Below, piece by piece: positions 44,482 through 59,856 of a stretch of DNA of 64,000 nucleotides. Within the stretch, counting starts at the first letter, position 1, and every line of letters begins with the position of its first letter. Origin of the DNA: an uncultured Actinomycetes bacterium (GTDB lineage Bacteria; Actinomycetota; Thermoleophilia; UBA2241); the NCBI GenBank assembly GCA_963767005.1, contig CAVYCN010000008.1:32001-96000 (forward strand), written 5' to 3'. The notes beneath the pieces were generated by a model. It was given only the letters and a program-made list of their open reading frames with translations, ran no database searches and was not told where the DNA came from. A program made the translations under genes and the position numbers.

Positions 44482-45582
44482 ATGAACGCACGCCGCCGCC
44501 TCGCCCCCGAGGTCTTCGCCCTTCCGGTCGAGCGCATGCGCGAGGGCTACTACAGCGACGCCTACTTCAACTTCTCCAAACGCGTGCTCGAGACACGCGA
44601 CGAGCATCCGCGCGTGCTCATGCAGGTGTTCCAGAAGTACGCCGGCGCCGTGCTGGGCGGCACCGACGAGGCCGTCGCCACGCTCAAGCTCTGCGCCGGT
44701 CGCCACGAGCTGCGCGGCGGGCGCCGGGTCTGGGTCGACGGCTGGGACAAGCTCGAGGTACGAGCGCTCTACGACGGCGACGAGGCCGCGCCGTGGGAGA
44801 CAGTGATGACCATCGAGGGCGACTACACGCTCTTCGCCCATCTCGAGACGGTCTATCTGGGCGTCCTCACGCGCCGCACGCTGATCTCGACCAACGTGCG
44901 GCGCGTGGTGCAGGCCGCCGGCGCCAAGCCCGTGCTCTTCTTTCCGGCCCGTTTCGACCACTACCGCGTGCAGGCCGGCGACGGCTGGGCGGCGCACGTC
45001 GCCGGCGCGATCGGCGTGTCGACCGACGAGCAGGCCTCGTGGTGGGGCGGCAAGGGCGGCGGCACCGTGCCGCACGGCCTGATCGCCGCCTACGGGGGCG
45101 ATACCGTGGCGGCGTCCGCCGCCTTCGCCGACGAGCTCTATCCCGACGTCAACGTGGTCGCCCTGGTCGACTTCGACAACGACTGCGTCGCGACGTCCCT
45201 CGCCTGTGCCCGCGCCCTTGGCGAGCGTCTGTGGGGCGTGCGGCTCGATACCTCCGAGACGATGGTCGATCGCTCGCTCTGGGAGTCCATGGGGCAGTTC
45301 CGCCCGACCGGGGTGAACCCGCAGCTCGTGCGCAACGTCCGCAGCGCCCTCGATGAGGAGGGCTTCGACCACGTGCGCATCGTGGTGAGCGGCGGCTTCG
45401 ACGCCGAGCGCATCCGCGAGTTCGAGCGCGACGGCGTGCCGGCCGACGCCTACGGCGTGGGCTCGAGCCTGCTGCGTGGCAGGATCGACTTCACCGCCGA
45501 CGTGGTCGAGGTCGACGGCCGACCCTGCGCCAAGCGGGGGCGCATCGAACGCCCGAACCCGCGGCTCGAGCTTGTGGAGTGA
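44482..45582 (+). CDS. Nicotinate phosphoribosyltransferase-like (NAPRTase/QPRTase family)
   Basis: GYYSDAYF, GTVPHGLI, LVDFDND, GVRLDT, IVVSGG, YGVGS. Confidence 0.8.
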   Translation: MNARRRLAPEVFALPVERMREGYYSDAYFNFSKRVLETRDEHPRVLMQVFQKYAGAVLGGTDEAVATLKLCAGRHELRGGRRVWVDGWDKLEVRALYDGDEAAPWETVMTIEGDYTLFAHLETVYLGVLTRRTLISTNVRRVVQAAGAKPVLFFPARFDHYRVQAGDGWAAHVAGAIGVSTDEQASWWGGKGGGTVPHGLIAAYGGDTVAASAAFADELYPDVNVVALVDFDNDCVATSLACARALGERLWGVRLDTSETMVDRSLWESMGQFRPTGVNPQLVRNVRSALDEEGFDHVRIVVSGGFDAERIREFERDGVPADAYGVGSSLLRGRIDFTADVVEVDGRPCAKRGRIERPNPRLELVE

Positions 45583-46233: not shown

Positions 46234-46845
46234 TCAGCCGCCGCCCGAGCCGGCGTGCGAGCCGGTCCCGCTGCCGTCCATCAGGTCGACGAAGCTGCGC
46301 GCCGTGCGCCCGATGCCCGACGTCGGGTCGATCGCCGCGGCCTTGCGCCACTCGTCGCGCGCCAGGTCGGCGCGCTGCTGGGAGAAGTAGAGGATGGCGA
46401 GGTTGTAGTGGGCGAGCTGACTGTGCGGGTCGGCCGCGAGCACGCCGGTGAGGAGCTGCAGCGCCTGGTCGTCGCGGCCCGTCGCGTGCAGCGCCATGGC
46501 GAGCTGCGCCTTGGCGGTCTGGTCGTCGGGGTCGGCGACGAGGACCTTCGTATAGAGCGCCTCGGCCTTGCGCGGCTGCTCGGTCATGAGATAGGCGTCG
46601 GCCAGGGCCATCGCGTTCCGGGTGCTCGAGGGATGCTTCGAGTAGCGCGCCGCGAGCAGCTTGACCATGGCGGCGTAGTCGGTGTCGCTCGCGCTCGGCG
46701 AGGGGACGTTGGTCGGCAGCGTAGCGGCGCTCGCTTCGGTGGTCGCGGCGGCGGTCTTGCCCGGCGACCGCGAGCCCGCCAGGACGATGAGGCTGGCGAC
46801 CAGGATGGCGACCACGATACCGGCGACGGCGTATCGTTTCCGCAA
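46234..46845 (-). CDS. Exported tetratricopeptide repeat protein
   Basis: N-terminal TM/signal helix, TPR-like AHYNLAILY...WRKAAAIDP. Confidence 0.7.
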   Translation of the reverse strand: MRKRYAVAGIVVAILVASLIVLAGSRSPGKTAAATTEASAATLPTNVPSPSASDTDYAAMVKLLAARYSKHPSSTRNAMALADAYLMTEQPRKAEALYTKVLVADPDDQTAKAQLAMALHATGRDDQALQLLTGVLAADPHSQLAHYNLAILYFSQQRADLARDEWRKAAAIDPTSGIGRTARSFVDLMDGSGTGSHAGSGGG

Positions 46846-47007: not shown

Positions 47008-47021
47008 TCGTGCCGCTTGAC
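47008..47021 (+). repeat. Casposon target-site duplication, left copy (TCGTGCCGCTTGAC)
   Basis: 13/14 identical to 59331-59344 and directly abuts the TIR. Confidence 0.88.
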
Positions 47022-47073
47022 GGGATAGGAGATAGGGAGAAACGAAACGTCCCCGAAGTGTAACAGGCTGATT
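47022..47073 (+). repeat. Left terminal inverted repeat (52 bp)
   Basis: GGGATAGGAGATAGGGAGAAACGAAACGTCCCCGAAGTGTAACAGGCTGATT; 50/52 match to the reverse complement of 59279-59330. Confidence 0.95.
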
Positions 47074-47231
47074 TGTTCCGAATTCCGGCGACCCGTGCAC
47101 GGACTCGCTGCCGCTGTGCGCCAGCTCGCCTACCCGGGCAGAGGGTCGTCGGCCGGCTGCCCGAAGTCGTAGCTAGGGGGGTGCGGCGGTAGAGAGTTCA
47201 TGGGGTTGATGCGAAGCCGCTGCTGGTAGGT

Positions 47232-47248
47232 ACTCTGTGGTGCAGAGT
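47232..47248. promoter_or_regulatory. Palindromic operator ACTCTG-N5-CAGAGT overlapping a -10-like TACTCT
   Basis: Perfect 6-bp inverted repeat upstream of the membrane protein + wHTH pair. Confidence 0.45.
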
Positions 47249-47917
47249 TCTTTGCCAATAACGGAGGGAGTCACCACGTACCCCGACGGCCCGGACTTCG
47301 ATCTCCGCTCGCTAGAGCAACGCGCGTTTGGGCGGTCCGAAGAGGACGGCCTGACCGACGTCCTACAAGGGTTTCTGTTGCTCAGCATGGTGGTGGTGTC
47401 CCGAGGTGCCGTTTCTCACGGTACGACACAGGCTCTCCTGAGTGCCTATATGCTCATCGGGCCAATCACGATAGGCGCCCTTGCCTACCTGCATCAGAGG
47501 TTGCAGAGAACACGCGTCGGCACTGCGACTCGGCGGGTCAGCCAGCGTCGTCGTCAGAGACACTTCTACCTTGCGGTCGTGGGCGTCGGAGTCGTCGTCT
47601 TCCTCGTAGCGAATGTCATTGACGGCCGGAGGAGCGTCGGGCAGGTTGCGTTTCCGTTTGCGATTGCCATCGCCTGGGTGTCCTTCGAGTTTGGCACCGC
47701 CATCTTCAAGCGCGCCCCTCGATTCTTCGCCTATGGTCTGCTCATGAGCGTCGGCTGGGTGGCATTCCTGTCTACCGATAAGGACTGGCGTCTCGCGCTG
47801 CTGCTCGGCGCCCTTCCCGCAGCGGTCATGATCTGCGTCGGGCTTGTGTTGCTCGTGCGCTTCCTGCGCCGCTATCCACTGCCGCAGATTGGCGAGCTTC
47901 CCGATGGCCGCAGCTAG
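47237..47917 (+). CDS. Hypothetical multi-TM membrane protein (casposon cargo)
   Basis: EDGLTDVLQG, about 6 TM helices, C-terminal RFLRRYP; start uncertain. Confidence 0.65.
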   Translation: MVQSSLPITEGVTTYPDGPDFDLRSLEQRAFGRSEEDGLTDVLQGFLLLSMVVVSRGAVSHGTTQALLSAYMLIGPITIGALAYLHQRLQRTRVGTATRRVSQRRRQRHFYLAVVGVGVVVFLVANVIDGRRSVGQVAFPFAIAIAWVSFEFGTAIFKRAPRFFAYGLLMSVGWVAFLSTDKDWRLALLLGALPAAVMICVGLVLLVRFLRRYPLPQIGELPDGRS

Positions 47918-48227
47918 GTCGCATGAGGCAGGCTGGTTTGCCGCCCCTGATCGTCTCATCCACGAGCCGGCGCGTCTGACCATCATGGCCAACCTCTCTG
48001 TCGTCGAGAGCGCTGACGCCACCTGGCTTGTGCAGCAGACCGACCTGACCTGGGGCAACCTCTCGTCACATCTAGTGAAGCTGCGCGACGCCGGCTACGT
48101 CACGGTGGTCAAAGGCTACGCAGGCAACAAACCACAGACGACCCTTGCCCTGAGTGACAAGGGGCGAGCAGCTTTTCGCGAGTACCGGGAGCGCCTGACG
48201 AGAGCACTCGCGGACTTGCCCAACTGA
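47904..48227 (+). CDS. Winged-helix transcriptional regulator (HTH_34/ArsR-like)
   Basis: DRLIHEPARLTIMANL, LTWGNLSSHLVKLRDAGYV, GRAAFREY. Confidence 0.88.
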   Translation: MAAARSHEAGWFAAPDRLIHEPARLTIMANLSVVESADATWLVQQTDLTWGNLSSHLVKLRDAGYVTVVKGYAGNKPQTTLALSDKGRAAFREYRERLTRALADLPN

Positions 48228-48254
48228 GCGCGCTGGAACTGAGAGTGCCGGCTG

Positions 48255-48346
48255 CGGTCCGTAACTCCGGCGTGTACGCCACGCTGACTCCCTTCTTGGA
48301 CACCAGTGTCCACTTTCAGGGTGTCAACGAAAGCGGGTCAACTCCA
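48255..48346 (-). mobile_element. Probable IS3-family left-end remnant
   Basis: TGGAGTTGACCCGCTTTCGTTGACACC end, then an RBS and VAYTPELR (OrfA-like start); coincides with the abrupt MTase end. Confidence 0.45.
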
Positions 48347-50097
48347 GGTTCCTTCCTCACCGCTTGATCCAACCTTTCCAGAATCGTCACGACAGTGTCG
48401 ACGTCCTGGTTCGGGAAGAACGGCTCGACCTCCGACCAAATGACAAGAACTGGCTGGAAGTAGTCGAGCATGAATCTCTGAAGGGTGGCCCCATACTTCG
48501 ATGTCAGCCATGCGGCTGATGTTACGAAGCCGATGCGTCCCCCTTCCTTCACGAAGCTTGCCGCGTGGATGAAATAGTAGGCGTAGGCATCGAACTTGCT
48601 GTCTTGTGCGACTCCCGCGCGATGCGCCAGCCGGTGGAGTTGAGCCTTGTAGGTGGGCTCTAAGTCATCCAGCTGTTGGCTGCGGACATACGGCGGGTTT
48701 CCTATTACGCAGTCGAACGCTGGCAGCGGGAGTTGTACTTGGTGAGTTGAGCCGCGATGGCGCTTGGCGGGAGGGAAAGTCAACGTGTCACCCGGTTTCA
48801 GGGTGAAGAAGTCCCGCACCGCCACGCGTGGGAAGTTGTCGGCAGACGTCAGGTCCTGGCGGCAGAGATTCAGGACCGCAAGCTCGGCTGGGAAGGCTGA
48901 TATGTCCACTGCCCACAGGTTCTCAAGAATCTCCTCGTGAGACAGAGTGGACGATTGACGAATCCTCTGGTGTGCCCGCATGAGGAATGTCCCCGTTCCT
49001 ACACCGGGATCGAACACAAGGTCCTCCGGTCGAGACATACAAAGTGAAACCATGAGGTCCGCGAGCTGGGGTTTCGTATAGTACTGGCCGAGGATGATTC
49101 GCTCTGACGTGGGGATCATGTTCTCGAATACTGAGCCGAGAACATCGTCCCGGACCTTGTCCCAGCTGTACGCGCTTAGGTCTGCAACAAGGTTGGCTAT
49201 CTGCGATTCGCTTGCTGGGCCAAGTGGGATTTCTTCCAACGGCGACTGTTCGTAGAGAGCTTCGTAGTCGAAAGCTCGAACTGCATCCCAGAAAGCCCTG
49301 AGTTGAGTGGTGACGCTGGAGCCAGGGCTTATCTGCAGCTTGGGCAAGCTTGGCTCGTGCCTTCTGTAGGAGTGGTAGAACAGTATCTGGCCAACAAGCC
49401 TGTAGCTCATTTGGGCCGCGAGCGCTGAGTGCAGGTCCTCCACGAAGGCGGCGAGGCCCTGTTTGGCTGCCCAGAGGCTTATGCGCCTCCGAATTGCACG
49501 GTCTGCGGCAAGCTTCTTGCGAAAATCATCCTCGATTGCGGTTCGCAGACTGCGCACCCGGTCGCCTAGGAAGTCGACAAAGACTGTGGCGTCAACGAGC
49601 TGACCTCCAACGGACCCGTGGGTGCTGAGGTCGTACGCAGCTCGGACAAGTTCGAGCGCCACGCGACGGAGGCTTTCGCGCACGGTTGGCTTGAGGCAAT
49701 CTTCGATGCTCCGCGCCTGAGAGACCCGACCCACCTCCGCGATGAAGTCGTCCGGCAGTAGATCCTTGCGAGGCGGAGCAGGAGTCCGGAAGCAATGAGC
49801 CACAGTGACATTCCAAAGAGCCAGGTACGGAGCACCAACAAGCTGGGCCTTCCTGACCGCGTCCCGCTGGAAAGCCTCGTCGGACAGCGACACGCTGGGT
49901 GGCTTGAGTTCGATCTCAAGCACGGCGTCACCTAAGGCGCGGTTTCGCCAGATGACGATGTCAGAGCGGTGACCGTCGGGATTCTTGAATTCCTGGGTCG
50001 CACGGTCGAAGCCGAGATTGTGCGCACGCAACTCGTCGGATATCCACGTCAGGGCCTCGCCTTGAAACTCCCACTCGGTAGTTCCGAACGTGGTCAC
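48316..50097 (-). CDS. Restriction endonuclease-N6 adenine methyltransferase fusion (Type IIG/HsdM-like), C-terminally truncated
   Basis: SDIV...LEIELK (PD-(D/E)xK-like), GQYYT, FDPGVGTGTF (motif I), GNPPY (motif IV); no TRD follows. Confidence 0.82.
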   Translation of the reverse strand: MTTFGTTEWEFQGEALTWISDELRAHNLGFDRATQEFKNPDGHRSDIVIWRNRALGDAVLEIELKPPSVSLSDEAFQRDAVRKAQLVGAPYLALWNVTVAHCFRTPAPPRKDLLPDDFIAEVGRVSQARSIEDCLKPTVRESLRRVALELVRAAYDLSTHGSVGGQLVDATVFVDFLGDRVRSLRTAIEDDFRKKLAADRAIRRRISLWAAKQGLAAFVEDLHSALAAQMSYRLVGQILFYHSYRRHEPSLPKLQISPGSSVTTQLRAFWDAVRAFDYEALYEQSPLEEIPLGPASESQIANLVADLSAYSWDKVRDDVLGSVFENMIPTSERIILGQYYTKPQLADLMVSLCMSRPEDLVFDPGVGTGTFLMRAHQRIRQSSTLSHEEILENLWAVDISAFPAELAVLNLCRQDLTSADNFPRVAVRDFFTLKPGDTLTFPPAKRHRGSTHQVQLPLPAFDCVIGNPPYVRSQQLDDLEPTYKAQLHRLAHRAGVAQDSKFDAYAYYFIHAASFVKEGGRIGFVTSAAWLTSKYGATLQRFMLDYFQPVLVIWSEVEPFFPNQDVDTVVTILERLDQAVRKEPGVDPLSLTP

Positions 50098-50176
50098 GAA
50101 ACGCCCTCCACGGCTCACCAGCGAGAATACTGTCACATGACCCTTCGGCGCGGGAGCACGTGATGCCTGCCAGCCA

Positions 50177-51736
50177 TCACCTAGGGTGAGGGTGAGGGGG
50201 TGCGGTGGGACCCGACACAGACCTGAGCGCATTCCAGTGCACCGGGTGTGGCACTCGCCCGCGCCGTATCTGAGAGCAGTAGCGTAATGACAGCCCGGTC
50301 GCCTGCACCATTCTCGATAGCGCCACGCCCTGTAACGCGGGAAGTATCTCGCTGGTGAACTCGGTTTCATCGGGTGCGTCGTGCTCGGCGTCCCAGCGTG
50401 TAGCCTCGTTCATCCGCCGGGAGTTCGCCCGTCCCACCTTCCTCTTGGCCTCTTCAGTCTTCGTCGGGTCGCGACCCTCCGCCCGCAGGCGTGCCAAGCC
50501 GGCCGGCCCTGCCTCACAGAAGAGCGCGAGCTTCTGCTGCTCATGCTCTGGGAGGCACTCGTCGCAGTAGACGCGGTCAGAGGCGAGCGACACACCACAG
50601 CCGGCGCAACTGCCCGCCCGCACGCGCGGCGGGCGCGCGACCGTCTTGGCGCTCCTGCGGTGGGCGTCGCGGCCGGCGCTACGCCTGCTCTGTGTGAGGG
50701 GCGTTGGCAGGACGGCGATCCTCGTCTTTGCGGCGAGCATCGCGGCGACGTTCTCGACGACCGGCGCGATGGCTTTGGCCCACTGATTGCAGGTCTCGGC
50801 GAGGGTGTGGGAAAGTGGGGCGAGCACGCGACAGACGCCCTTGCGGGTCTCCGAGAAGTCCTTACTTGAGAAAGTGCGCACCGCGAGCAGGTCGAGCAGG
50901 TAGGCGTCGACCGTCGGTCGCGCCGCCTCCATGAGGTCGAGCGCGAGTGAGTCGCGGGCGGTCTGGTCCGCGTGAAAGACGCCGAGCCCGGGATCGAGCC
51001 CGCAGGCGAGGCAAGCGAAACGCGTCTCCGCTTCAAGCAGAGCGTAGAGGTAGTTGAGCAGGGCGTTCGCGGGGTTGGCAGCAAGACGCGGCGAGCCGGT
51101 AATCGGCGAGCTGCGCTGGCCGAATGTGCGCCAGTACTTGGGCACGGTTCGCTCGTCTTTGCGGGCGAAGCGCGGGGCGATGTTGCACCATGCTGCCCAA
51201 TAGGCGACCGCACCTGCCGCCTCCGCTGTGAGGACCTCGCCGAGGGATGTAGCCTTCTTGGCAACCTGCCGGGCTTCCGTCGCTTCGGCTCGCGCGCTGT
51301 CGGCGAACTCCGCACGCGACAGGTTGATGACCTGGCCGGCGAGCTTGGCGCTCAAGACATAACGAGCGATGTCGAGGCCGACCGGACTTCTAGCCGCCAG
51401 AGCTTGCGCCCGTCGCAGGCGCGGATCGTTGAGGCCGTAGCCGGCGGAAGTCGCAATCAGCTCGCCGTCGTGATCGATCTGCAGGAACTCGATTCCGGCG
51501 TCGCTCAACCACCGTAGGGCTTCGAAAGTGACGAAACCCTCGTGGCCGATGACGACGAGGCGTTTGGCGGGGGCGAGCGCCTTGGCGAAGCTGCGCTGCC
51601 TGCGGAAGCGTCCGATGCCGTCCGAGACGATCAGACTCCGGTTGTGGACCCGAACCTGGATGCCGTAGCCGTCGACCACACAGACGCCGCCTGCGCAGTC
51701 GAGGCTTTGGAAGGTTGCGCTAACATAGCTCTGCAT
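50177..51736 (-). CDS. cas1: Stand-alone Cas1 (casposase) with C-terminal Zn ribbon and HTH
   Basis: GFVTFEALRWL, EAAGAVAYW (catalytic E), NPANALLNYLY, GLDPGLGVFH (H), SLALDLMEAARP (D/E); GAGG RBS before ATG 51736. Confidence 0.92.
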   Translation of the reverse strand: MQSYVSATFQSLDCAGGVCVVDGYGIQVRVHNRSLIVSDGIGRFRRQRSFAKALAPAKRLVVIGHEGFVTFEALRWLSDAGIEFLQIDHDGELIATSAGYGLNDPRLRRAQALAARSPVGLDIARYVLSAKLAGQVINLSRAEFADSARAEATEARQVAKKATSLGEVLTAEAAGAVAYWAAWCNIAPRFARKDERTVPKYWRTFGQRSSPITGSPRLAANPANALLNYLYALLEAETRFACLACGLDPGLGVFHADQTARDSLALDLMEAARPTVDAYLLDLLAVRTFSSKDFSETRKGVCRVLAPLSHTLAETCNQWAKAIAPVVENVAAMLAAKTRIAVLPTPLTQSRRSAGRDAHRRSAKTVARPPRVRAGSCAGCGVSLASDRVYCDECLPEHEQQKLALFCEAGPAGLARLRAEGRDPTKTEEAKRKVGRANSRRMNEATRWDAEHDAPDETEFTSEILPALQGVALSRMVQATGLSLRYCSQIRRGRVPHPVHWNALRSVSGPTAPPHPHPR

Positions 51737-51800
51737 TTCGGAACCTCGTTTTCCGAGTGCCACGCCCCCGGGCCGCTCCAACGGTCGCGGGGGCACTTGT

Positions 51801-52940
51801 CTAGACGGTCGGTTTGGCCGAGCCACCCATCAGTGCCTTCAACATCGCCGCCACGACGCCCGCTCGCGCCTCCTCACGCTTGTAGTCGTCGGCGAACACC
51901 CCGGCCTCTCGTTGTGCCTCGAAGTTCGCCTGCCACTCGGGCAGTAGATTGCGGATGATGGTAAGCAGTGCCTCGAACGGCTTGCGGTCGCGACGGCGCA
52001 CCGAGAAGAGCAACGGCAGCGAGACGACCCGCACGACGTAATGCCAATCGACACCGTCTGCAAGAACCCAAGGCATCTTCTCTTCGACCTGCGGCGGAAG
52101 CAGGGCGCGCCCGGCCTGCACAAAGAACGTGACAAGCGCGTAGACCTCTTCGAAGTCGGCGCGGGCGCGCTCGAAGTCCTGTGTCTTCATCGCCCGAAGG
52201 GACCTGAGGACGTGGGGCAGGCTGAGCTGGCGCACCTGGCGGCCGACCGCTCCGGAGCGGATGTAATCGGCGGCCTTGCCGGCGATCTCGGGCGAGAGGA
52301 GGTCGGCGAGCGCCGCCTCGAAGCCGTAGGCGACAAACGCCTGATAGATAACCTCATCCGACTCGGGCAGCAGGTGCCCCGTCAGGAAGATGAAGAACAG
52401 GCACGTGTAGAGCGTCTTGAGTTTGCCCTGCTGGGAGTCGTCGGGTAGCCAGCGCAACGGCTTGTCGAGGTGGGCGAGCATCTTGTCTGTCTGCGTCCGC
52501 GTGAATCGCGAGAGCCGGTCGCCAGCGAGCTTCGCGGCGAGGCCCTCGGCGACGACAAGCGGCGGCGCGGCGGGCTCGTAGCGCCTGCGGCGCGCGCCCG
52601 CGTAGCGCTCCAACATGGTGCGCACGCGCTCCAGCTGGCCGGCAATCACGCGCTGCAGCTCATCGCCTGTGACACGGTAGCCCGCAAGGAGCAGCGGCAG
52701 GGCGACCTTGTCGAGGTTGTCTTCGCGAGCAGGATGGCGCATGACGGCAAGCACCTGGGCGGCCGCGCCGGCCGGATAGCGCGTGCGGCGTCCATCGACG
52801 CGCTCGGTCTCGGGGATCAGGCCATGCTGACGCCAGCGTTCAAGCTGCGTGACGGTGGGCAGCGCTTCGCCTGCCTCAAGAAGACGAGCAACCTCCGCGA
52901 GAAGCTCTTTGTCTGCGCGTGTGAGCTGGCGTTTCGGCAT
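51801..52940 (-). CDS. Hypothetical protein with N-terminal MerR-like HTH
   Basis: TVTQLERWRQHGLIP...RTRYP; helical remainder. Confidence 0.65.
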   Translation of the reverse strand: MPKRQLTRADKELLAEVARLLEAGEALPTVTQLERWRQHGLIPETERVDGRRTRYPAGAAAQVLAVMRHPAREDNLDKVALPLLLAGYRVTGDELQRVIAGQLERVRTMLERYAGARRRRYEPAAPPLVVAEGLAAKLAGDRLSRFTRTQTDKMLAHLDKPLRWLPDDSQQGKLKTLYTCLFFIFLTGHLLPESDEVIYQAFVAYGFEAALADLLSPEIAGKAADYIRSGAVGRQVRQLSLPHVLRSLRAMKTQDFERARADFEEVYALVTFFVQAGRALLPPQVEEKMPWVLADGVDWHYVVRVVSLPLLFSVRRRDRKPFEALLTIIRNLLPEWQANFEAQREAGVFADDYKREEARAGVVAAMLKALMGGSAKPTV

Positions 52941-53050
52941 GTAACTCCATTCTATTACTACGCGCCAAAATCACAACGAGGCGACAGGATCATTTCGTAC
53001 TCTTCGCAGTCAACGCGGCATGTAGCCGCGACGACTGAAAGGAAGACGGC

Positions 53051-53662
53051 ATGGCAAGACCGCCCATCACCAAGTCGCGCCCCTGGACGCCCTCGCGCGG
53101 GCAGTTCAAGGGGCGCACCTTCGCGACCGAGAGGTCGTACCGCGACGCGCTCGCACAAGCCAAGGGCTTCCGCAGCTGGCACGACCAGCAGAGGGAAGCA
53201 AAGAAGGTCAGCGCGATGAGCTACGGGGCGTTGCGCGAGTCTCAGAAGCAGGCGCGTAGCCGCGCCCTCAAAGCCCTCGCGAAGATGCGGCGCGGCAAAT
53301 CGCTCACCGAGGCGGCGCGTGAGGCTGAGACGACGCCGAACACCGTCGTCCGTTACGCGGGCAGTCAGCTGCACCACGAGGGCGGGCGTATGGTCGCCTC
53401 CAAGTCCGACCGTATGTTCCGCCAGATGTGGGCTTACACGACCGAGGGGCTGCAGCCGGTCGCCGTGCGCACCTCCAAGCAGGCGAGCCTCATCGGTCAG
53501 CACCGCAACGCAGTCAAGAAGTTCCGGCGCGGCGACGAGACCGCGCTGCGCAAGTTCGCGGGTGTGAAGGTGGGCGGCGTGGAACTTGAGGTGCGCCCCG
53601 ACGTCCTTGAGGAGTACTTCCGTACCACCACGCCCGAGTTCGAAGGGCCGCAGTCCGGGTGA
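53051..53662 (+). CDS. Basic HTH-containing protein
   Basis: GKSLTEAAREAETTPNTVVRY; AGGA RBS; stop overlaps the next ORF. Confidence 0.7.
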   Translation: MARPPITKSRPWTPSRGQFKGRTFATERSYRDALAQAKGFRSWHDQQREAKKVSAMSYGALRESQKQARSRALKALAKMRRGKSLTEAAREAETTPNTVVRYAGSQLHHEGGRMVASKSDRMFRQMWAYTTEGLQPVAVRTSKQASLIGQHRNAVKKFRRGDETALRKFAGVKVGGVELEVRPDVLEEYFRTTTPEFEGPQSG

Positions 53663-53673
53663 GGGGGCAGGCG

Positions 53674-54096
53674 ATGAACGACGATCCGATTGGCAAAGCG
53701 GCACGGGCTTCGCGCCGTAAGCGCCGCGTGCCCGAGGGCACAATCTGCCTGCTCTGCGGGGCGCAAGACTCGGACGTGCTCAACGAGTACGACCGCTCGA
53801 TCTTCGAAGCCCATCACATCGCGGGCGTGGCCAACCTGCCGGACGATACCGTATGGCTGTGCTGCAACTGCCACCGCAAGGTGCACATCGCCCTGACAGA
53901 CGAAGGCGTCGATCTGGCGCACGCCGAGAAGCGCACGGTGCTCAGGGTGATTCAGGTGCTGCTTGTCGGCTGCGCTGTGCTTTTCCGCAAGCTCGCCGAT
54001 ACCTTCCTGTGGCTTGCCCACCTGCTCGGGGCGTTCATCGACTCACTCGACGATGAGCTGCCGGGCTGGCGTGAACTTCCGGAGGCTAGCTTGTGA
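53674..54096 (+). CDS. HNH endonuclease
   Basis: CLLCG...EAHHIAG...LCCNCHRKVH. Confidence 0.8.
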   Translation: MNDDPIGKAARASRRKRRVPEGTICLLCGAQDSDVLNEYDRSIFEAHHIAGVANLPDDTVWLCCNCHRKVHIALTDEGVDLAHAEKRTVLRVIQVLLVGCAVLFRKLADTFLWLAHLLGAFIDSLDDELPGWRELPEASL

Positions 54097-57000
54097 GCTA
54101 CGAGGAAATCGCGGTGAGGGCATGGGCGGAGCCTGCGGGCTCCGCCCTTTCCTTCGAGCGCTCGGGGCGAGCTTTTCGCCTGCCCGAATACGCCCTCGTG
54201 ATCGACACCGAGACGAGCGTCGACATCACGCAGGCGCTCAACTTCGGTTCATACCGGTTCATCGCGCTCAACGACGGCGAGAACCCACCGGGCAGCTGTC
54301 TTGAGGAGGGGCTGTTCTATGCCGACGAGTTGGCCACACGTTACCCGGACGGCCTGGGCAGGCTTGAGAGCTACGTGAGTGCCCACGAGGCCGACCTCGA
54401 CGTTGAACGCTACCGCCGGCCGCTCCACCTCTACACGCGCCGCGAGTTCGTGCGCCAGGTCTTTCTGCGCGCGGCCTACCGGGCGCGAGCGCTCGTGGTC
54501 GGCTTCAACCTGCCGTTCGATCTCTCGCGCCTGGCTATCGACGTCTCGGCCGCGAGGCGCTCGTATGCGGGCGGCTTCTCGCTCGCCCTGTGGGACTACG
54601 AGAAGCGCGGCGAGCGCGTGCCCGATCCGAACCGCCCGCGTGTCGTCGTCAAGAGCCTCAATTCCAAAGAGCACCTCTTTCGCTTCACGGACCGCCGCAT
54701 TGGTGACCCAGAAGATTACGAGGAACGCGAGCAGGCGGACGGCACGAAGAAGCGCGTCGCGTTCTCGGGCCACTTCCTCGACCTACACACGCTGACCTTC
54801 GCCCTGACCGCCGAGAACTTCTCACTTGAAAGAGCCTGCAAAGCCTTCGGCGTTGAGCACGGCAAGCAGAAGGTGAAGCGGCACGGTCTCATCACGCCCC
54901 GCTACATCGACTACAACCGCCGGGACGTGAAGGCGACGGGCGAGCTGCTCATGAAGGCCCTTGAGGAGTTTGACCGGCACCCCGTCCGGCTGCAGGTAAC
55001 CAAAGCGTTCTCGCCAGCCTCGATTGCCAAGTCCTACGAGGACGCCATGGGCTTGACGCCGATACTCGGCCGCCAGCCCGACTTCGACCGCAGCGTGCTC
55101 GGCTATGCCATGAACGCCTTCTACGGCGGGCGGGCCGAGTGTCGCATCCGACGCGTCGCCCTGCCGGTCTGCTACACGGACTTCGCCAGCATGTACCCGA
55201 CGGTCAACGCCCTCATGGAGAACTGGCAACTGCTCACCGCCGCCGAGATTAGCGTCGTGCCGGCGACCGATGACGTGAGGCGGTTTCTCGACGAGGTCAC
55301 ACTCGACGCCTGCTTTGAGCCGGCGACCTGGCAATGTCTGCGCGCCTTCGTGAAGGTCAGGCCGGACGGCGAAATCTTCCCGGTGCGCGTGCGCTATGAC
55401 TCGCGCGGGCCGAGCTGGCAGATTGGCGCGAACCCCCTGACAGGAGGCGAGGGCCAATGGTTTGCCCTGCCCGACGTGGTCGCCGCCAAGCTCGCCTCGG
55501 GTAAGACGCCGCAGGTCCTCGACGCGATCCGCTTGGAAGCATCCAACGCACGACAGCCCGGGTTGCGGCGCACGAAGCTGCGCGGTGCGGTGCCGGTTGA
55601 CCCGCGCCGCCAGGACTTCTTTCGGGCTGTCGTCGAAGAGCGACGGCGCACGCGCCGCAACGAGACACTCGACGAGGCCGAGCGCGAACGCCTGGAAGCC
55701 GCGCTGAAGGTCATCGCCAACGCCGGTAGCTACGGCATCTTCGCCGAGATGAACCGCAAGCAGCAGTCGGCCAAGGTACCGGTCGTCTTCTGGAACGCAG
55801 ATGGCGAGCGTTGCGAAACCAAGCTCAAGACGCCGGAAGAGCCGGGACCGTTCTGCTTCCCACCGCTCGCCGCCCTGATTACTTCAGCGGCACGGCTCAT
55901 GTTGACGCTGCTTGAGTGCACGGTGCGCGAGCGCGGCGGCTCCTACGTCTTCTGCGACACCGACTCGCTTGCCATCGTGTCGAGCGAGCAGGGTGGCCTG
56001 TTCGATTGCCCCGGCGGGCCGCAACGTTTGCCCGATGGGCGCGAGGCGGTGAAGGCGCTGAGTTGGTCCGAGGTCGACGAGGTCGTGGCGCGCTTCGCCG
56101 GCCTCAACCCGTACGATCCCGACGCCGTGCCCGGCTCGGTGCTCGACATCGAAAAGCAGAACTACATCAAGGACACAAAGCAGCGGCGTGAGCTGTGGTG
56201 CTATGCGATCAGCGCGAAGCGCTACGTGCTCTACAACCTCGGAGACGACGGGCGGCGTGTCATTCGCAAGCACTCACGTCACGGTCTCGGCCACCTGCTC
56301 GACCCGACCGACCCCGACTCGGGCGACGACAGCTGGATCGAGCAGGTCTGGCAGCACATCCTCGCCCTCGACGTCTTGGGGCAAGCGCCCGTCGAGCCGG
56401 CCTGGTTTGGCCGGCCGGCGATGGCCCGCGTGAGCGTCAGCGACATGCGGACCTTTCGACTCTTCGAAGCGCTCAACAAGGGCAAGCCCTACGCCGAGCG
56501 GGTCAAGCCGCAGAACTTCCTGCTCTCGGCGCAGGTAGCGGACCTCGGCCACCCGCCGGGCGTCGATCCGACCAAGCCCTTTCACTTGGTCGCGCCCTAT
56601 CACTCAGACCCGCGCCAATGGCTCAAGCTCGCCTTCACCGACCGCTACAGTAAGAAGAGCGCGACCTACCACATCACGACCGACGATGACGTCGCTGAGG
56701 GCGTCGCCTGCGTGAAGACCTACGGCGAGGTAATCGAAGACTACCGCTGGCGTCCGGAGCATAAGAGCCTGGCACCTGACGGGCAGCCCTGCAGCCGTGA
56801 GAGTACGGGGTTGCTGCGGCGGCGACCTGTGGAGGTCGTGCGACCTGTCTACGTCGGCAAGGAAGCGAACAGCCTCGAAGAGGTCGAACACCTGCTCGTC
56901 GAAGACGAAGACGAGATCATGAACCGCTACGATGACGCGGCGCACGATCCGTTTGTGCGATACGTCGTGCCGGTGCTGAGGGGGATGCCACGCGAGCAGG

Positions 57001-57344
57001 TGCTGAGAGTGGCCCGCCTCCACCCCGACTCAGTCAAGCGCATCTTGGCCGGCCGTGTACCGCACGGGAAAACGGCAGAGCGTCTAGCGTTGATGGCCGT
57101 TGAGTACGCACGATCGAGGCTGAGAAAGCGCGATGCGGAAATCCCGAAGAACGCAGTGGGGATACTTCGCCGGTTCACGCAGCTGAGCATTGAGCAACGG
57201 ACTTGCCCGGAGTGCGGCAAGCTCGTGCCGTCGAAGAGGGCCGCTTACTGCAGCGCGGTTTGCAGGATGCAGGCTAGCCGACGGAGGCGTGGCGAGCGAA
57301 ACGGAGTCGGAGGACACGCCACCAGTCCGCCGCCGCAAGACTAA
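54093..57344 (+). CDS. polB: Family B DNA polymerase (casposon PolB) with C-terminal HTH and Zn ribbon
   Basis: ExoI IDTET, ExoII GFNLPFD, ExoIII YNRRD, DFASMYP, KVIANAGSYG, CDTDS, AKRY. Confidence 0.92.
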   Translation: MSYEEIAVRAWAEPAGSALSFERSGRAFRLPEYALVIDTETSVDITQALNFGSYRFIALNDGENPPGSCLEEGLFYADELATRYPDGLGRLESYVSAHEADLDVERYRRPLHLYTRREFVRQVFLRAAYRARALVVGFNLPFDLSRLAIDVSAARRSYAGGFSLALWDYEKRGERVPDPNRPRVVVKSLNSKEHLFRFTDRRIGDPEDYEEREQADGTKKRVAFSGHFLDLHTLTFALTAENFSLERACKAFGVEHGKQKVKRHGLITPRYIDYNRRDVKATGELLMKALEEFDRHPVRLQVTKAFSPASIAKSYEDAMGLTPILGRQPDFDRSVLGYAMNAFYGGRAECRIRRVALPVCYTDFASMYPTVNALMENWQLLTAAEISVVPATDDVRRFLDEVTLDACFEPATWQCLRAFVKVRPDGEIFPVRVRYDSRGPSWQIGANPLTGGEGQWFALPDVVAAKLASGKTPQVLDAIRLEASNARQPGLRRTKLRGAVPVDPRRQDFFRAVVEERRRTRRNETLDEAERERLEAALKVIANAGSYGIFAEMNRKQQSAKVPVVFWNADGERCETKLKTPEEPGPFCFPPLAALITSAARLMLTLLECTVRERGGSYVFCDTDSLAIVSSEQGGLFDCPGGPQRLPDGREAVKALSWSEVDEVVARFAGLNPYDPDAVPGSVLDIEKQNYIKDTKQRRELWCYAISAKRYVLYNLGDDGRRVIRKHSRHGLGHLLDPTDPDSGDDSWIEQVWQHILALDVLGQAPVEPAWFGRPAMARVSVSDMRTFRLFEALNKGKPYAERVKPQNFLLSAQVADLGHPPGVDPTKPFHLVAPYHSDPRQWLKLAFTDRYSKKSATYHITTDDDVAEGVACVKTYGEVIEDYRWRPEHKSLAPDGQPCSRESTGLLRRRPVEVVRPVYVGKEANSLEEVEHLLVEDEDEIMNRYDDAAHDPFVRYVVPVLRGMPREQVLRVARLHPDSVKRILAGRVPHGKTAERLALMAVEYARSRLRKRDAEIPKNAVGILRRFTQLSIEQRTCPECGKLVPSKRAAYCSAVCRMQASRRRRGERNGVGGHATSPPPQD

Positions 57345-57347
57345 GTC

Positions 57348-59006
57348 TCAAACTTTCCATGAAACGAGCAACGCAACGACTGCAATAACAATCGAGGCAG
57401 ATGTCAGCCACACTATTAATCTCTGAATCCGAATGTTGGATATCGTCTGAGTAATGTCGCTTGTTACTGACAACTGCGATTGAAGCAATCCAGAGTCACG
57501 TATTAGCTGCGCTGCCCGATCCTTCTGGGACGATTGTAGCGATTTGAGTAGGTCAGGTTTCTCCTTACCAACCACTCTGTTGTACTTCATTTCAATCACG
57601 TCGTGTCGATATGCACGGTCAGACTTGGCGAATGACTTGACCTCGTTAGCTGAGACAGCGATGTCATACAACTCGGCTCGCACTAACGAACGAAGCGACT
57701 TGAGGTCAGATACCGGACGATAGAGATGTCTGCTAGCGGCCTTGTCGCGAAGTGTTGAAAGCATTTCATGGTAGCCATCTAGCGCACAAGAAAGGGTCCA
57801 GCGAACGAGAAGGCCCCGGACGAGCTCGTCTACTCTGTATGCGATGGTCCAGTTCGAAGTCGGGTCAGGGTAGCCGGCATTATCCGCGAAGGCGTCTCGC
57901 CTGCGGCACCCGAATACGAGCCTTAGCCCCTCGTCGTCCCACGTTCTGGGCAGTACAAGTCGCCCGCGAGGCCATTCATCCTCCGACTCCCAGGAATCGT
58001 AGTCCCGATCAAGCGAAAGCCCGTAGAGAGAGCGCATACCGCGTACAGCCTCGGATAGCGGTTCAATGCCCTCGGTCACAAACAGAACGGCTGTCGGGAA
58101 CTCGGAGCCTGAGGCCCTGGACGAAAACACACCTGGCAGGCTGTCTGCTACCCAGGCGGCGCACTTCGTCTCAACTGACTTGACGCGGGAGCGCAGTTCG
58201 CTCCGCCGTATGCGGTCAGGATCGTAGATTGTCTCGCCGGAGTGGAGTCGACCGTTCCACAGGATGAATGAAATGACCTGCCACGGACGAAATCGAGGGT
58301 CATTCTCAGTTCGCGTCCTGAAGAACGCGTGAAGTGGCTCGTTTAGGCAACCCGCCTGTTCTTCTGACAGCATGAAACCCACAACGAGGGCTGTGAGGCT
58401 GGGCGAGATCGACAACAGAACAGGCAGCGCCGCCGTGACTCCATCGGGCAGCGTTGCTTCCCGCTCCCTCATGAATTGGCCAGCATCCGAGGAGACCAAG
58501 CCGAGGCTCGTCCACCCGGCTCTCCGGCCCCGGCGCACATCGCCCATCCACTTCACGAGGCTGTCGCTCCGGGTCCGCCCGTACTCCCATCCGAGACGGC
58601 CTATACCTTCAAGGAGTCCCGCAATAGTCGAGGGTGTGTATAGCTCGGCCACCCAGAGAATGGGAACTTCCACTCGCTCGTCGTCCGGAAGACGGCCACT
58701 CTCGTTGTGCTTGCTGTCAAAGCGCCCCCAAGCGCGGACATCACGCTTGGCCCGCCGCATGGCTCGATACCAAAGAAAGCGATTCGCCGGTCCCCACCTG
58801 GCGAACGCGCGGCCCAATCCTGACTGACGCGGCGATTCCTCGGTCTTCTGCGGCGGTTCGTCGCCTGGCAGCTCCACAGCCTCAGCGCCCTCGGGCGGTG
58901 GGGCACCACTCAAGATGTTGACGTCTGCGTCTTCTTCCGGGGTTCCGCCGGGATCGTTCGGGCCAGGACTGGCTGCCGAGCTTGAGTCAAGCGTCTCGTC
59001 TGGCAT
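57348..59006 (-). CDS. Hypothetical cargo protein with C-terminal coiled coil and single TM helix
   Basis: 552-aa ORF in AT-richer sequence; ends in LIVWLTSASIVIAVVALLVSWKV. Confidence 0.7.
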   Translation of the reverse strand: MPDETLDSSSAASPGPNDPGGTPEEDADVNILSGAPPPEGAEAVELPGDEPPQKTEESPRQSGLGRAFARWGPANRFLWYRAMRRAKRDVRAWGRFDSKHNESGRLPDDERVEVPILWVAELYTPSTIAGLLEGIGRLGWEYGRTRSDSLVKWMGDVRRGRRAGWTSLGLVSSDAGQFMREREATLPDGVTAALPVLLSISPSLTALVVGFMLSEEQAGCLNEPLHAFFRTRTENDPRFRPWQVISFILWNGRLHSGETIYDPDRIRRSELRSRVKSVETKCAAWVADSLPGVFSSRASGSEFPTAVLFVTEGIEPLSEAVRGMRSLYGLSLDRDYDSWESEDEWPRGRLVLPRTWDDEGLRLVFGCRRRDAFADNAGYPDPTSNWTIAYRVDELVRGLLVRWTLSCALDGYHEMLSTLRDKAASRHLYRPVSDLKSLRSLVRAELYDIAVSANEVKSFAKSDRAYRHDVIEMKYNRVVGKEKPDLLKSLQSSQKDRAAQLIRDSGLLQSQLSVTSDITQTISNIRIQRLIVWLTSASIVIAVVALLVSWKV

Positions 59007-59278
59007 GCTATTTCGGCCCCCGACCCCTCCGACATGTCCGCGCGCTGCATTGTCGTTCACTCGGTCGAAGAGCCTATCGCTTTCGTCGAGGCGGGTCACC
59101 GACGCCCCCAATGGGGGCGAGCTGCGCGCTCTATACCGTCCGTTCGCCGACCCCTCGACCACGCCGGAGAGCCGGCCGGCGGCCGTGTGCCTCCGTCACC
59201 TCGACGGCGGGGCGGGCAGAAGAGCCGCTACGAAGTGAGGGCGAGCTGGCCCGGGGGGAGCCCAGAGAATCCGGACTG

Positions 59279-59330
59279 AATCAGCCCGTTACACTTCGGG
59301 GACGTTTCGTTTCTCCCTATCCCCTATCCC
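59279..59330 (-). repeat. Right terminal inverted repeat (52 bp)
   Basis: AATCAGCCCGTTACACTTCGGGGACGTTTCGTTTCTCCCTATCCCCTATCCC. Confidence 0.95.
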
Positions 59331-59344
59331 TGGTGCCGCTTGAC
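59331..59344 (+). repeat. Casposon target-site duplication, right copy (TGGTGCCGCTTGAC)
   Basis: 13/14 identical to 47008-47021. Confidence 0.88.
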
Positions 59345-59368
59345 CACGCCTACCGGCGCGGCTAGACT
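59340..59368 (+). promoter_or_regulatory. Housekeeping-sigma promoter TTGACC-N17-TAGACT for the Rrf2 gene
   Basis: Near-consensus hexamers, 17-bp spacer, 50 bp upstream of the start codon. Confidence 0.7.
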
Positions 59369-59418: not shown

Positions 59419-59856
59419 GTGGGACTGCAGCTGACTCGGGGAGGCGAATACGCCATCAGGGCGATGAGCTACCTCGCCCTGCGCCCGGTCGGCGAGATTC
59501 GCGCGCTGCACGACGTCGGCGCCGAGCGGGACATCCCCGAGAGCTTCCTCGCCAAGATCTTCCAGAGCCTGGTGCACGCCGGGCTCGTCACCTCGCAGCG
59601 CGGCGCGCACGGCGGCTTCGCACTCGCGCGCCGGCCCGAGGATATCACCGTCCGACAGATCGTCGAGGCCGTCGACGGTCCCATCGCCCTGAACGGCTGC
59701 GTGCTGTGGCCCGACGACTGCCGGCGCAGCGGCACCTGCCGCATGCACGAGGTCTGGGTGCTCGCCCAGGAGCGCATGATGGAGGTCCTCGAGCAGGTCA
59801 CGCTGGCCGAGCTCGCGCCGGCGCCGGCGGCGGTCGCCGCACCCGCTCCCGCCTGA
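59419..59856 (+). CDS. Rrf2 family transcriptional regulator
   Basis: EYAIRAM, IPESFLAKIF, SQRGAHGGFALA, three Cys (C-x6-C-x5-C). Confidence 0.92.
   Translation: MGLQLTRGGEYAIRAMSYLALRPVGEIRALHDVGAERDIPESFLAKIFQSLVHAGLVTSQRGAHGGFALARRPEDITVRQIVEAVDGPIALNGCVLWPDDCRRSGTCRMHEVWVLAQERMMEVLEQVTLAELAPAPAAVAAPAPA

Follow-up and report, generated by a model that had tools for sequence, protein, structure and literature searches.

The closest described relatives of the element reported here are the casposon AceAut-C1 of Ca. 'Acetothermum autotrophicum', a family 3 member with a C-terminal zinc-binding domain and a helix-turn-helix (HTH) in its Cas1 (Krupovic et al. 2014, PMC4046053), and the family 2 casposons of M. 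mazei and A. boonei (PDB 6OPM). The present element, E1, lies in a stretch of 64,000 nucleotides from an uncultured Actinomycetes bacterium (assembly GCA_963767005.1, contig CAVYCN010000008.1, positions 32,001 to 96,000), in the following called the window. By its Cas1 architecture and motifs E1 appears to belong to the family 3 casposons, with AceAut-C1 as its type. Its insertion point coincides with the -35 box of the promoter predicted for rrf2, and we propose that such sites are found by docking of Cas1 on promoter-bound housekeeping RNA polymerase; to this reading as a whole we assign a probability of about 0.5.

AceAut-C1 and E1 both carry the zinc-binding domain and the HTH at the C-terminus of Cas1, and by eye the published AceAut-C1 Cas1 row has long motifs such as NPANALLNYLYALLEAETR in common with E1. 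The terminal inverted repeat (TIR) of AceAut-C1 also starts with GGGATAG, and its direct repeat ends with TTGACG on the other strand; this fit to the promoter register described below is that of the published repeat and its -35 bases. In contrast to E1, AceAut-C1 has TIRs of 602 bp, a length of 20 kb and other cargo, and the available part of its description gives the target only as 'intergenic', with no promoter noted. The repeats of NitAL212-C1, StrAlb-C1 and CitBat-C1, as published there, do not end TTGACG-like as that of AceAut-C1 does. As for the traits of family 3, the RpoD and tRNA set of the genome show a bacterial host, an HNH gene is present beside the polymerase gene polB, and the HTH signal of the gene next to it is weak; the zinc-binding domain followed by an HTH, typical of AceAut-C1, is found in E1. 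An earlier note on this DNA had suggested a new bacterial lineage. This suggestion was not supported: the Cas1 of E1 has the architecture of that of AceAut-C1, its core motifs are near-identical by eye and the group is large. The family of E1 is known already; what is new is its choice of target.

The family 2 casposons have 14-bp duplications, TIRs starting with GGG and a core of PolB, HNH and HTH genes, as E1 has, they reuse sites in tandem like the E1 type, and they require a motif at one end of the target-site duplication (TSD) together with flanking DNA (PMC6977970). Unlike E1 they are archaeal, target tRNA 3' ends or few intergenic sites, and no Zn ribbon or long helical arm has been reported for them. 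A similar target choice is known from the TnGBS, ISLre2 and ISKra4 Mutator-like (p-MULT) elements, which insert at a fixed distance from the sigmaA promoters of many genes and spare the gene (PMC3942029). These use DDE transposases instead of Cas1, have their junction 15-17 bp ahead of the -35 box and are mostly oriented, whereas the E1-type junction lies 9 bp upstream, with -35 bases inside the duplication, and both orientations occur. No Mutator-like DDE transposase was among the Pfam and NCBIfam matches of E1; the likeness is one of target choice only.

E1 and its empty site

The ends of E1, the targeted promoter and the flanking host genes are as follows.

47008..47021, + strand: left TSD, 14 bp, 3' end TTGAC
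47022..47085, + strand: left TIR, 52-bp core to 47073, starts with GGGATAGG
59267..59330, - strand: right TIR
59331..59344, + strand: right TSD, 14 bp
59340..59345, + strand: TTGACC, the -35 box predicted for rrf2, its first five bases being the end of the duplication
59363..59368, + strand: predicted -10 box TAGACT, 17 bp past the -35 box; TAGA(C/G)T in 9/9 relatives
46234..46845, - strand: host tetratricopeptide repeat (TPR) protein gene, left flank, divergent from rrf2; adjoins rrf2 in 8/9 relatives
59419..59856, + strand: host Rrf2-family regulator, gene of the targeted promoter

E1 covers positions 47022-59330 (12,309 bp) and has a GC content of 63.4%, against 71.3% for the genome. Its TIR arms are identical at 50/52 positions in the core and at 58/64 over their full length, and are the longest of 535 inverted pairs found in 44-64 kb. 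The direct repeat abuts both arms with 13/14 identical bases, for which the chance at a fixed place is about 1e-6. Re-measurement thus gave the same TIRs and repeat as the earlier note. An rrf2 orthologue was recovered in 9 of the 11 genus relatives searched, on which the empty-site comparison rests. In eight of the nine, the TPR gene lies directly upstream of rrf2 with a single TTGAC, and therefore the repeat of E1 is a duplication made on insertion; the empty site that the note had proposed to look for, joining the TPR region to rrf2, is thus present in relatives. The ninth has about 1 kb of other sequence between the two genes. Three low-share DNA sequencing runs of one study yielded no junction or empty-site contig.

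As for the recent, possibly still competent element that the earlier note saw in E1, the core open reading frames (ORFs; Cas1, PolB, HNH) are open, but the duplication has one mismatch in 14 and the methyltransferase cargo is shortened. Another assembly has a 1.26-Mb contig with records of proteins identical to Rrf2 and to NAPRT (44482-45582), but with none identical to PolB or to the 203-aa protein; the source may be a nearly identical strain whose site is empty or different. Rfam and ARAGORN searches found nothing in the window.

Most insertion sites share a predicted promoter register

The predicted rrf2 promoter reads TTGACC-17-TAGACT, with both boxes kept in 9/9 relatives and a diverging spacer. 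Four elements in the genome of E1 (E1 to E4) have TTGAC in the same register, all on predicted promoters; the register was first seen there and afterwards tested in other genomes. All 13 two-ended elements of the E1 type, two of which share the same thrC site, have a 14-bp duplication. TTG lies in register in 10/13 of them, and in 9/13 it is joined by TAnnnT at a spacer of 17 or 18. Counting every orthologous promoter once gave 20 distinct promoter-side sites, of which 15 start with TTG and 16 have TAnnnT at these spacers (six at 17, ten at 18): the cut is fixed to the -35 box and the -10 box floats. The -10 match drops to zero when the window of comparison is slid by 2-10 bp in one direction or 4-10 bp in the other. 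Position 11 of the duplication is T in 20/20 sites and position 12 is G in 19/20, the side having been picked by best match for three exceptions. Other genomes from the family of the host gave 17 distinct ends, and 15 of these have TTGAC, with one deviating base at most, where it is expected; of the remaining two, one reads TTGCGC-17-TAGACT and the other is a tandem junction with a shift of two bases. Two sites found after the rule had been fixed keep the register with a poor -35 box (CTGGCG, CTGGGT) and a strong -10 box (TATACT, TATAAT).

The targeted genes include rpsT (three genomes), the rpmH-rnpA operon, signal recognition particle (SRP) RNA, a tRNA and thrC with its S-adenosylmethionine (SAM) riboswitch (five genomes), as well as thiolase, trpE-like, ArsR, GH18 and carbon-nitrogen hydrolase genes. 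Counted from the start of the duplication, the RNA begins at 44 nt for the tRNA, 47 nt for SRP RNA and 66 nt for the SAM riboswitch, and a leaderless ATG lies at 44 nt at E2 and at the site in genome G142. These starts fall where the promoter predicts them. A fixed orientation of insertion was considered and rejected. One duplication, in G051:C13, measures 15 bp.

Casposons of a contrast group, whose Cas1 carries an N-terminal Zn finger, have neither box in register in 3/3 elements. This second group (L141 9192-9571; L139; L143) has GGGGTATAG ends, and one of its elements sits 10 bp downstream of a transfer-messenger RNA (Rfam). Some ends were left unassigned (L302, L309, L313, L119 and G051:C36 position 138). 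A TIR-pattern search of the phylum gave 27 ends outside the own genome, of which four had the motif, two others were those of the element in G760, and 21 stayed unassigned and were left out of the counts; four of the regions with such unassigned ends were inspected and contained no Cas1 or PolB match. Among 64 TIR-pattern matches in viral contigs, one had the motif in register, which we take as chance.

Very probably, then, E1-type casposons target promoters, as judged from the arrangement of sequence motifs. The earlier note had also seen in E1 a candidate site-specific integrase tool. Its specificity is for a promoter position and not for a single locus, so that a genome offers many possible sites.

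The casposase and its relatives

50177..51739, - strand: casposase of 520 aa, with Cas1 core, Zn ribbon, two long helices and XRE-type HTH

The E1 Cas1 matches PF01867 (E 9e-39), and its residues E172, H255, D267 and E270 (P0001 numbering) are invariant in 76/76 aligned homologues. In the C-terminal tail four Cys are invariant in 67/67 tails, and Zn-ribbon and HTH_3 profiles match the Cas1 tails of group members. The structural model places two helices of about 25 residues ahead of the HTH, whose fold is weakly XRE-like (Z up to 5.4). The genome has only two Cas1 genes, both inside casposons, no Cas2 match and no CRISPR-like array, a 24-mer scan detecting only tandem repeats with a period of 58-59 bp. 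A solo Cas1 with intact catalytic motifs, apart from cas2 or an array, had been described from the letters of the window, and this description was confirmed. The tandem repeats form ten short arrays of related sequence on contigs C2, C4, C7, C8, C14 and C18 of the genome (G000), not CRISPR-like by eye.

The tree of Cas1 sequences had 52 rows, with no published reference rows for families 1, 2, 3, 4 or type I-A. It split 45 casposon-type rows from seven weaker Cas1, six of them array-linked, with support 97/99. Of the phylogenies proposed in the earlier note, that of Cas1 thus sets E1 apart from array-linked CRISPR Cas1. The 32 tail-bearing rows were not resolved as a single clade in the careful tree; a clade uniting them, supported in a quick tree, was lost in this search.

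A CRISPR gene left stranded beside repeats that belong to another element, or that arose by chance, would be a wholly different explanation of the locus. It agrees with the NCBIfam label of E1 Cas1 (CRISPR-associated Cas1), with the A. fulgidus CRISPR Cas1 being a close second to the M. mazei casposase 6OPM, the best match in both sequence and structure, and with a tree that has no family 1, 2, 4 or type I-A reference. Against it, the same ends, the 14-bp duplication and the Cas1-PolB core recur in E2, L080, L088, L108, G056, G159 and G760, a CRISPR adaptation module has the Cas2 and repeat-spacer array that were not found in the genome, and none of nine E1 ORFs matched a transposase or recombinase in Pfam or NCBIfam except for a TnsD trace (E 0.04). 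We regard this explanation as scarcely credible. With TIRs and TSD, empty sites in 8/9 relatives, a tree position apart from array-linked Cas1 and a casposase as best structural match, E1 is almost certainly a casposon.

Of the first 600 metagenome stretches, 531 encode a relative of the casposase. Among representatives at 50% identity, 1,902 reach E <=1e-30, a number that includes other casposases and some CRISPR Cas1. In the class of the host, 10/401 genomes have a strong Cas1 match. The actinobacterial host presumed in the earlier note is plausible from the side of Cas1, as the Cas1 of a genome of the same class has a homologue labelled Thermoleophilia. Plasmid sequences gave no Cas1 match at E 1e-20, viral contigs one CRISPR-type locus only, and a single-protein scan of the genome contigs collection one irrelevant locus. 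Both ends lie within the stretch in only 3/80 metagenome loci.

How the sites may be found

If E1 works as the characterised casposases of M. mazei and A. boonei do, its Cas1 would act as a tetramer and attach the two GGGATAG ends 14 bp apart, one to each strand of the target; the repair that follows would duplicate the 14-bp site. We suggest that the Cas1 core would recognise YTG, which is near-invariant at the end of the duplication, and that either the Zn-ribbon/helix/HTH tail or the conserved 203-aa protein would pick real promoters via the sigmaA holoenzyme. Whichever way the site is recognised, the downstream copy retains -35 box, spacer and -10 box; as the core promoter is unchanged there, expression of the host gene probably continues. 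The insertion displaces what lies more than 9 bp upstream of the -35 box. PolB likely copies the excised element, and mini elements would be moved in trans.

Another account would be a mere preference for TTGAC-like sequence, with insertions inside genes purged so that the survivors look promoter-bound. Preference for a short motif is known, namely CGCA in M. mazei (PMC4779613), and bacterial casposons are described as intergenic. However, in the genome of E1 a -10 box follows 40/686 intergenic TTGAC (5.8%) and 29/218 TTGAC upstream of a gene on the same strand (13.3%), compared with 16/20 insertion sites; insertion at intergenic TTGAC outside promoters should be at least equally harmless, and two sites without TTG nevertheless keep the -10 register. 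This account is improbable.

More weight belongs to a variant with the same element and the same promoter targeting, in which the casposase reads both boxes on naked DNA, its core recognising YTG(A/C)C and the XRE-type HTH, on the long helical arm, TAnnnT about 20-25 bp off. The modelled helices before the HTH and the constancy of duplication positions 11 and 12 suit it, as does the requirement of the A. boonei enzyme for residues upstream of the site (PMC6614799). It is favoured by the M. mazei casposase, which in purified form selects its site with no host factor present and requires the TSD plus 30 bp, a motif at the TSD end and the HTH (PMC6977970). Direct reading of both boxes fits less well with a -10 box that floats by one base, in which only the sigma-critical T, A and T look fixed, and with the tolerance of poor -35 boxes where the -10 box is strong. 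The T, A and T of the -10 box are the positions contacted by sigma. We hold this variant to be a real but tentative possibility. Docking on the holoenzyme is favoured because the -10 box floats and weak -35 boxes are tolerated.

Several points weigh against holoenzyme docking, some of them already at the level of the sites. The step itself is proposed from sequence comparison, and the host-free specificity of the M. mazei enzyme speaks for direct recognition. If a tetramer occupied the 14 bp that become duplicated, it would collide with the binding place of sigma region 4, and a sigma4-like fold was looked for in the Cas1 tail and not found, the tail HTH being XRE-like. The promoters at the sites are predicted. 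Three of the 13 two-ended elements have no TTG in register, and four of the 20 sites have no TAnnnT, namely E3 (CAGAAT), L080, G760 and G159, the last three standing on long branches in the Cas1 tree. Single ends were sorted by the same motifs, which leaves the 13 pairs as the only non-circular test. The background comes from the genome of E1 only (71% GC) and from a crude GC3-based gene caller. For 16/20 sites against a background of 0.133 the binomial p of about 3e-11 is too small, given the relatedness of genomes, which are not independent, and their GC differences; 14/18 sites against an assumed 0.4 give p 0.001.

Other genes of E1

47237..47917, + strand: cargo, hydrophobic protein of 226 aa, probably in the membrane, without a family match
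47904..48227, + strand: cargo, winged-helix regulator (PF13601), start codon inferred
48264..48346, - strand: 83-bp fragment resembling the left end of an IS3-family insertion sequence (IS), 93% identical to a piece in mini element E3; overlaps the methyltransferase stop
48316..50097, - strand: cargo, type IIG-like restriction endonuclease-methyltransferase, 593 aa, C-terminally truncated
51801..52940, - strand: 379-aa protein, 46% identical to its E2 counterpart; N-terminus MerR-like by eye, no family match
53051..53662, + strand: conserved core protein of 203 aa whose HTH signal is weak; 36 homologues from related loci
53659..54096, + strand: HNH endonuclease-like protein, 145 aa
54093..57344, + strand: family B DNA polymerase (PolB), 1083 aa, open frame
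57348..59162, - strand: cargo, orphan ORF with an uncertain start, 604 aa at most, and a C-terminal hydrophobic helix

PolB has motifs at residues 38, 137, 274, 363, 539 and 621, which we take to be the Exo and Pol motifs. Its profile support is modest (phrog_1907, E 2e-10; PF03175, E 8e-4, below the cut-off), and a structure search gave no PDB match under E 0.37. The HNH protein matches a PHROG HNH family at E 1e-4, and its PADLOC match is weak too. The polymerase with its motifs and the HNH nuclease had both been recognised from the sequence of the window and stood up to these searches. For two other genes, of 203 and 379 aa, the HTH label given there is weak or lacks profile support. The predicted N6-methyltransferase is present and is not full-length: its alignment to the best homologue stops at residue 577 of 670, 23/27 homologues have 666-707 aa or more, and it ends, about 75 residues short of most of them, at the 83-bp fragment, which by eye we presume to be an IS3-family left end and which carries no transposase. 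The membrane protein, the winged-helix regulator and the 604-aa orphan were absent from the earlier listing. The orphan matches large unnamed clusters only (0.96-0.97, with a low recognition score) and is possibly a defence protein.

Further elements in the genome and in relatives

E2 (G000:C2:639892-654347; L001, L002) is a second full casposon, with 390-bp TIRs that are 99.5% alike and a perfect 14-bp duplication, by which it looks younger than E1. Its Cas1 and PolB are 69% and 64% identical to those of E1. The predicted promoter on which it lies belongs to a leaderless cupin gene, and the cargo of E2 includes GIY-YIG-like and YCF48-like proteins. E3 (G000:C7:6304-7233; L003) is a mini element of 930 bp with casposon ends and a 13/14 duplication, without core genes, and has the IS3-like end fragment in common with E1. 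E4 (G000:C2:206329-206342; L167) is a one-ended relic, its partner end not being found within the 36 kb searched. The promoter that it occupies belongs to a gene for 2,4-diaminopentanoate dehydrogenase; the same promoter holds a 10.7-kb PolB-less element in G011 and an end in G008.

Mini elements with both ends and 14-bp duplications were also found elsewhere (L257, 434 bp; L243, 1533 bp; L303/L311, 3293 bp), and may have been moved in trans or deleted in place. Tandem junctions, in which two element ends share one 14-bp duplication (L113, L116, L049, L263, L311), are reuse of a site. Apart from the casposons, ARAGORN called a tRNA-Pyl (CTA) at G000:C3:242986-243058.

Significance of the probable promoter targeting

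We found no publication on promoter targeting by casposons among titles and abstract openings, most subscription journals lying outside the search, and the word 'promoter' does not occur in the available parts of PMC4779613 and PMC9939771. Few bacterial casposons have been published, and for their targets only the label 'intergenic' is given; a rule of cutting on the -35 box would explain this label, in hindsight also for AceAut-C1. Cas1-type integrases, known to target tRNA or gene 3' ends and CRISPR leaders, would thereby gain a third mode, one on which the TnGBS-type DDE transposases have converged, and the rule makes testable what the C-terminal domain of the casposase recognises. An integrase able to place 10-17 kb directly ahead of promoters that stay intact could be of use, but with many targets per genome.

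In its widest form, a large cross-phylum clade of Cas1 integrases would use the host sigmaA-RNA polymerase as a landing mark and insert, exact to the base pair, at the -35 box of housekeeping promoters in active use; it would also mobilise mini-casposons, leading to several elements per genome; we consider this plausible, if a shade short of an even chance. If true, Cas1 would here be targeted by the transcription machinery instead of a leader, a tRNA or a fixed att site. As the insertion removes upstream regulatory DNA and spares the core promoter, it may rewire host genes.

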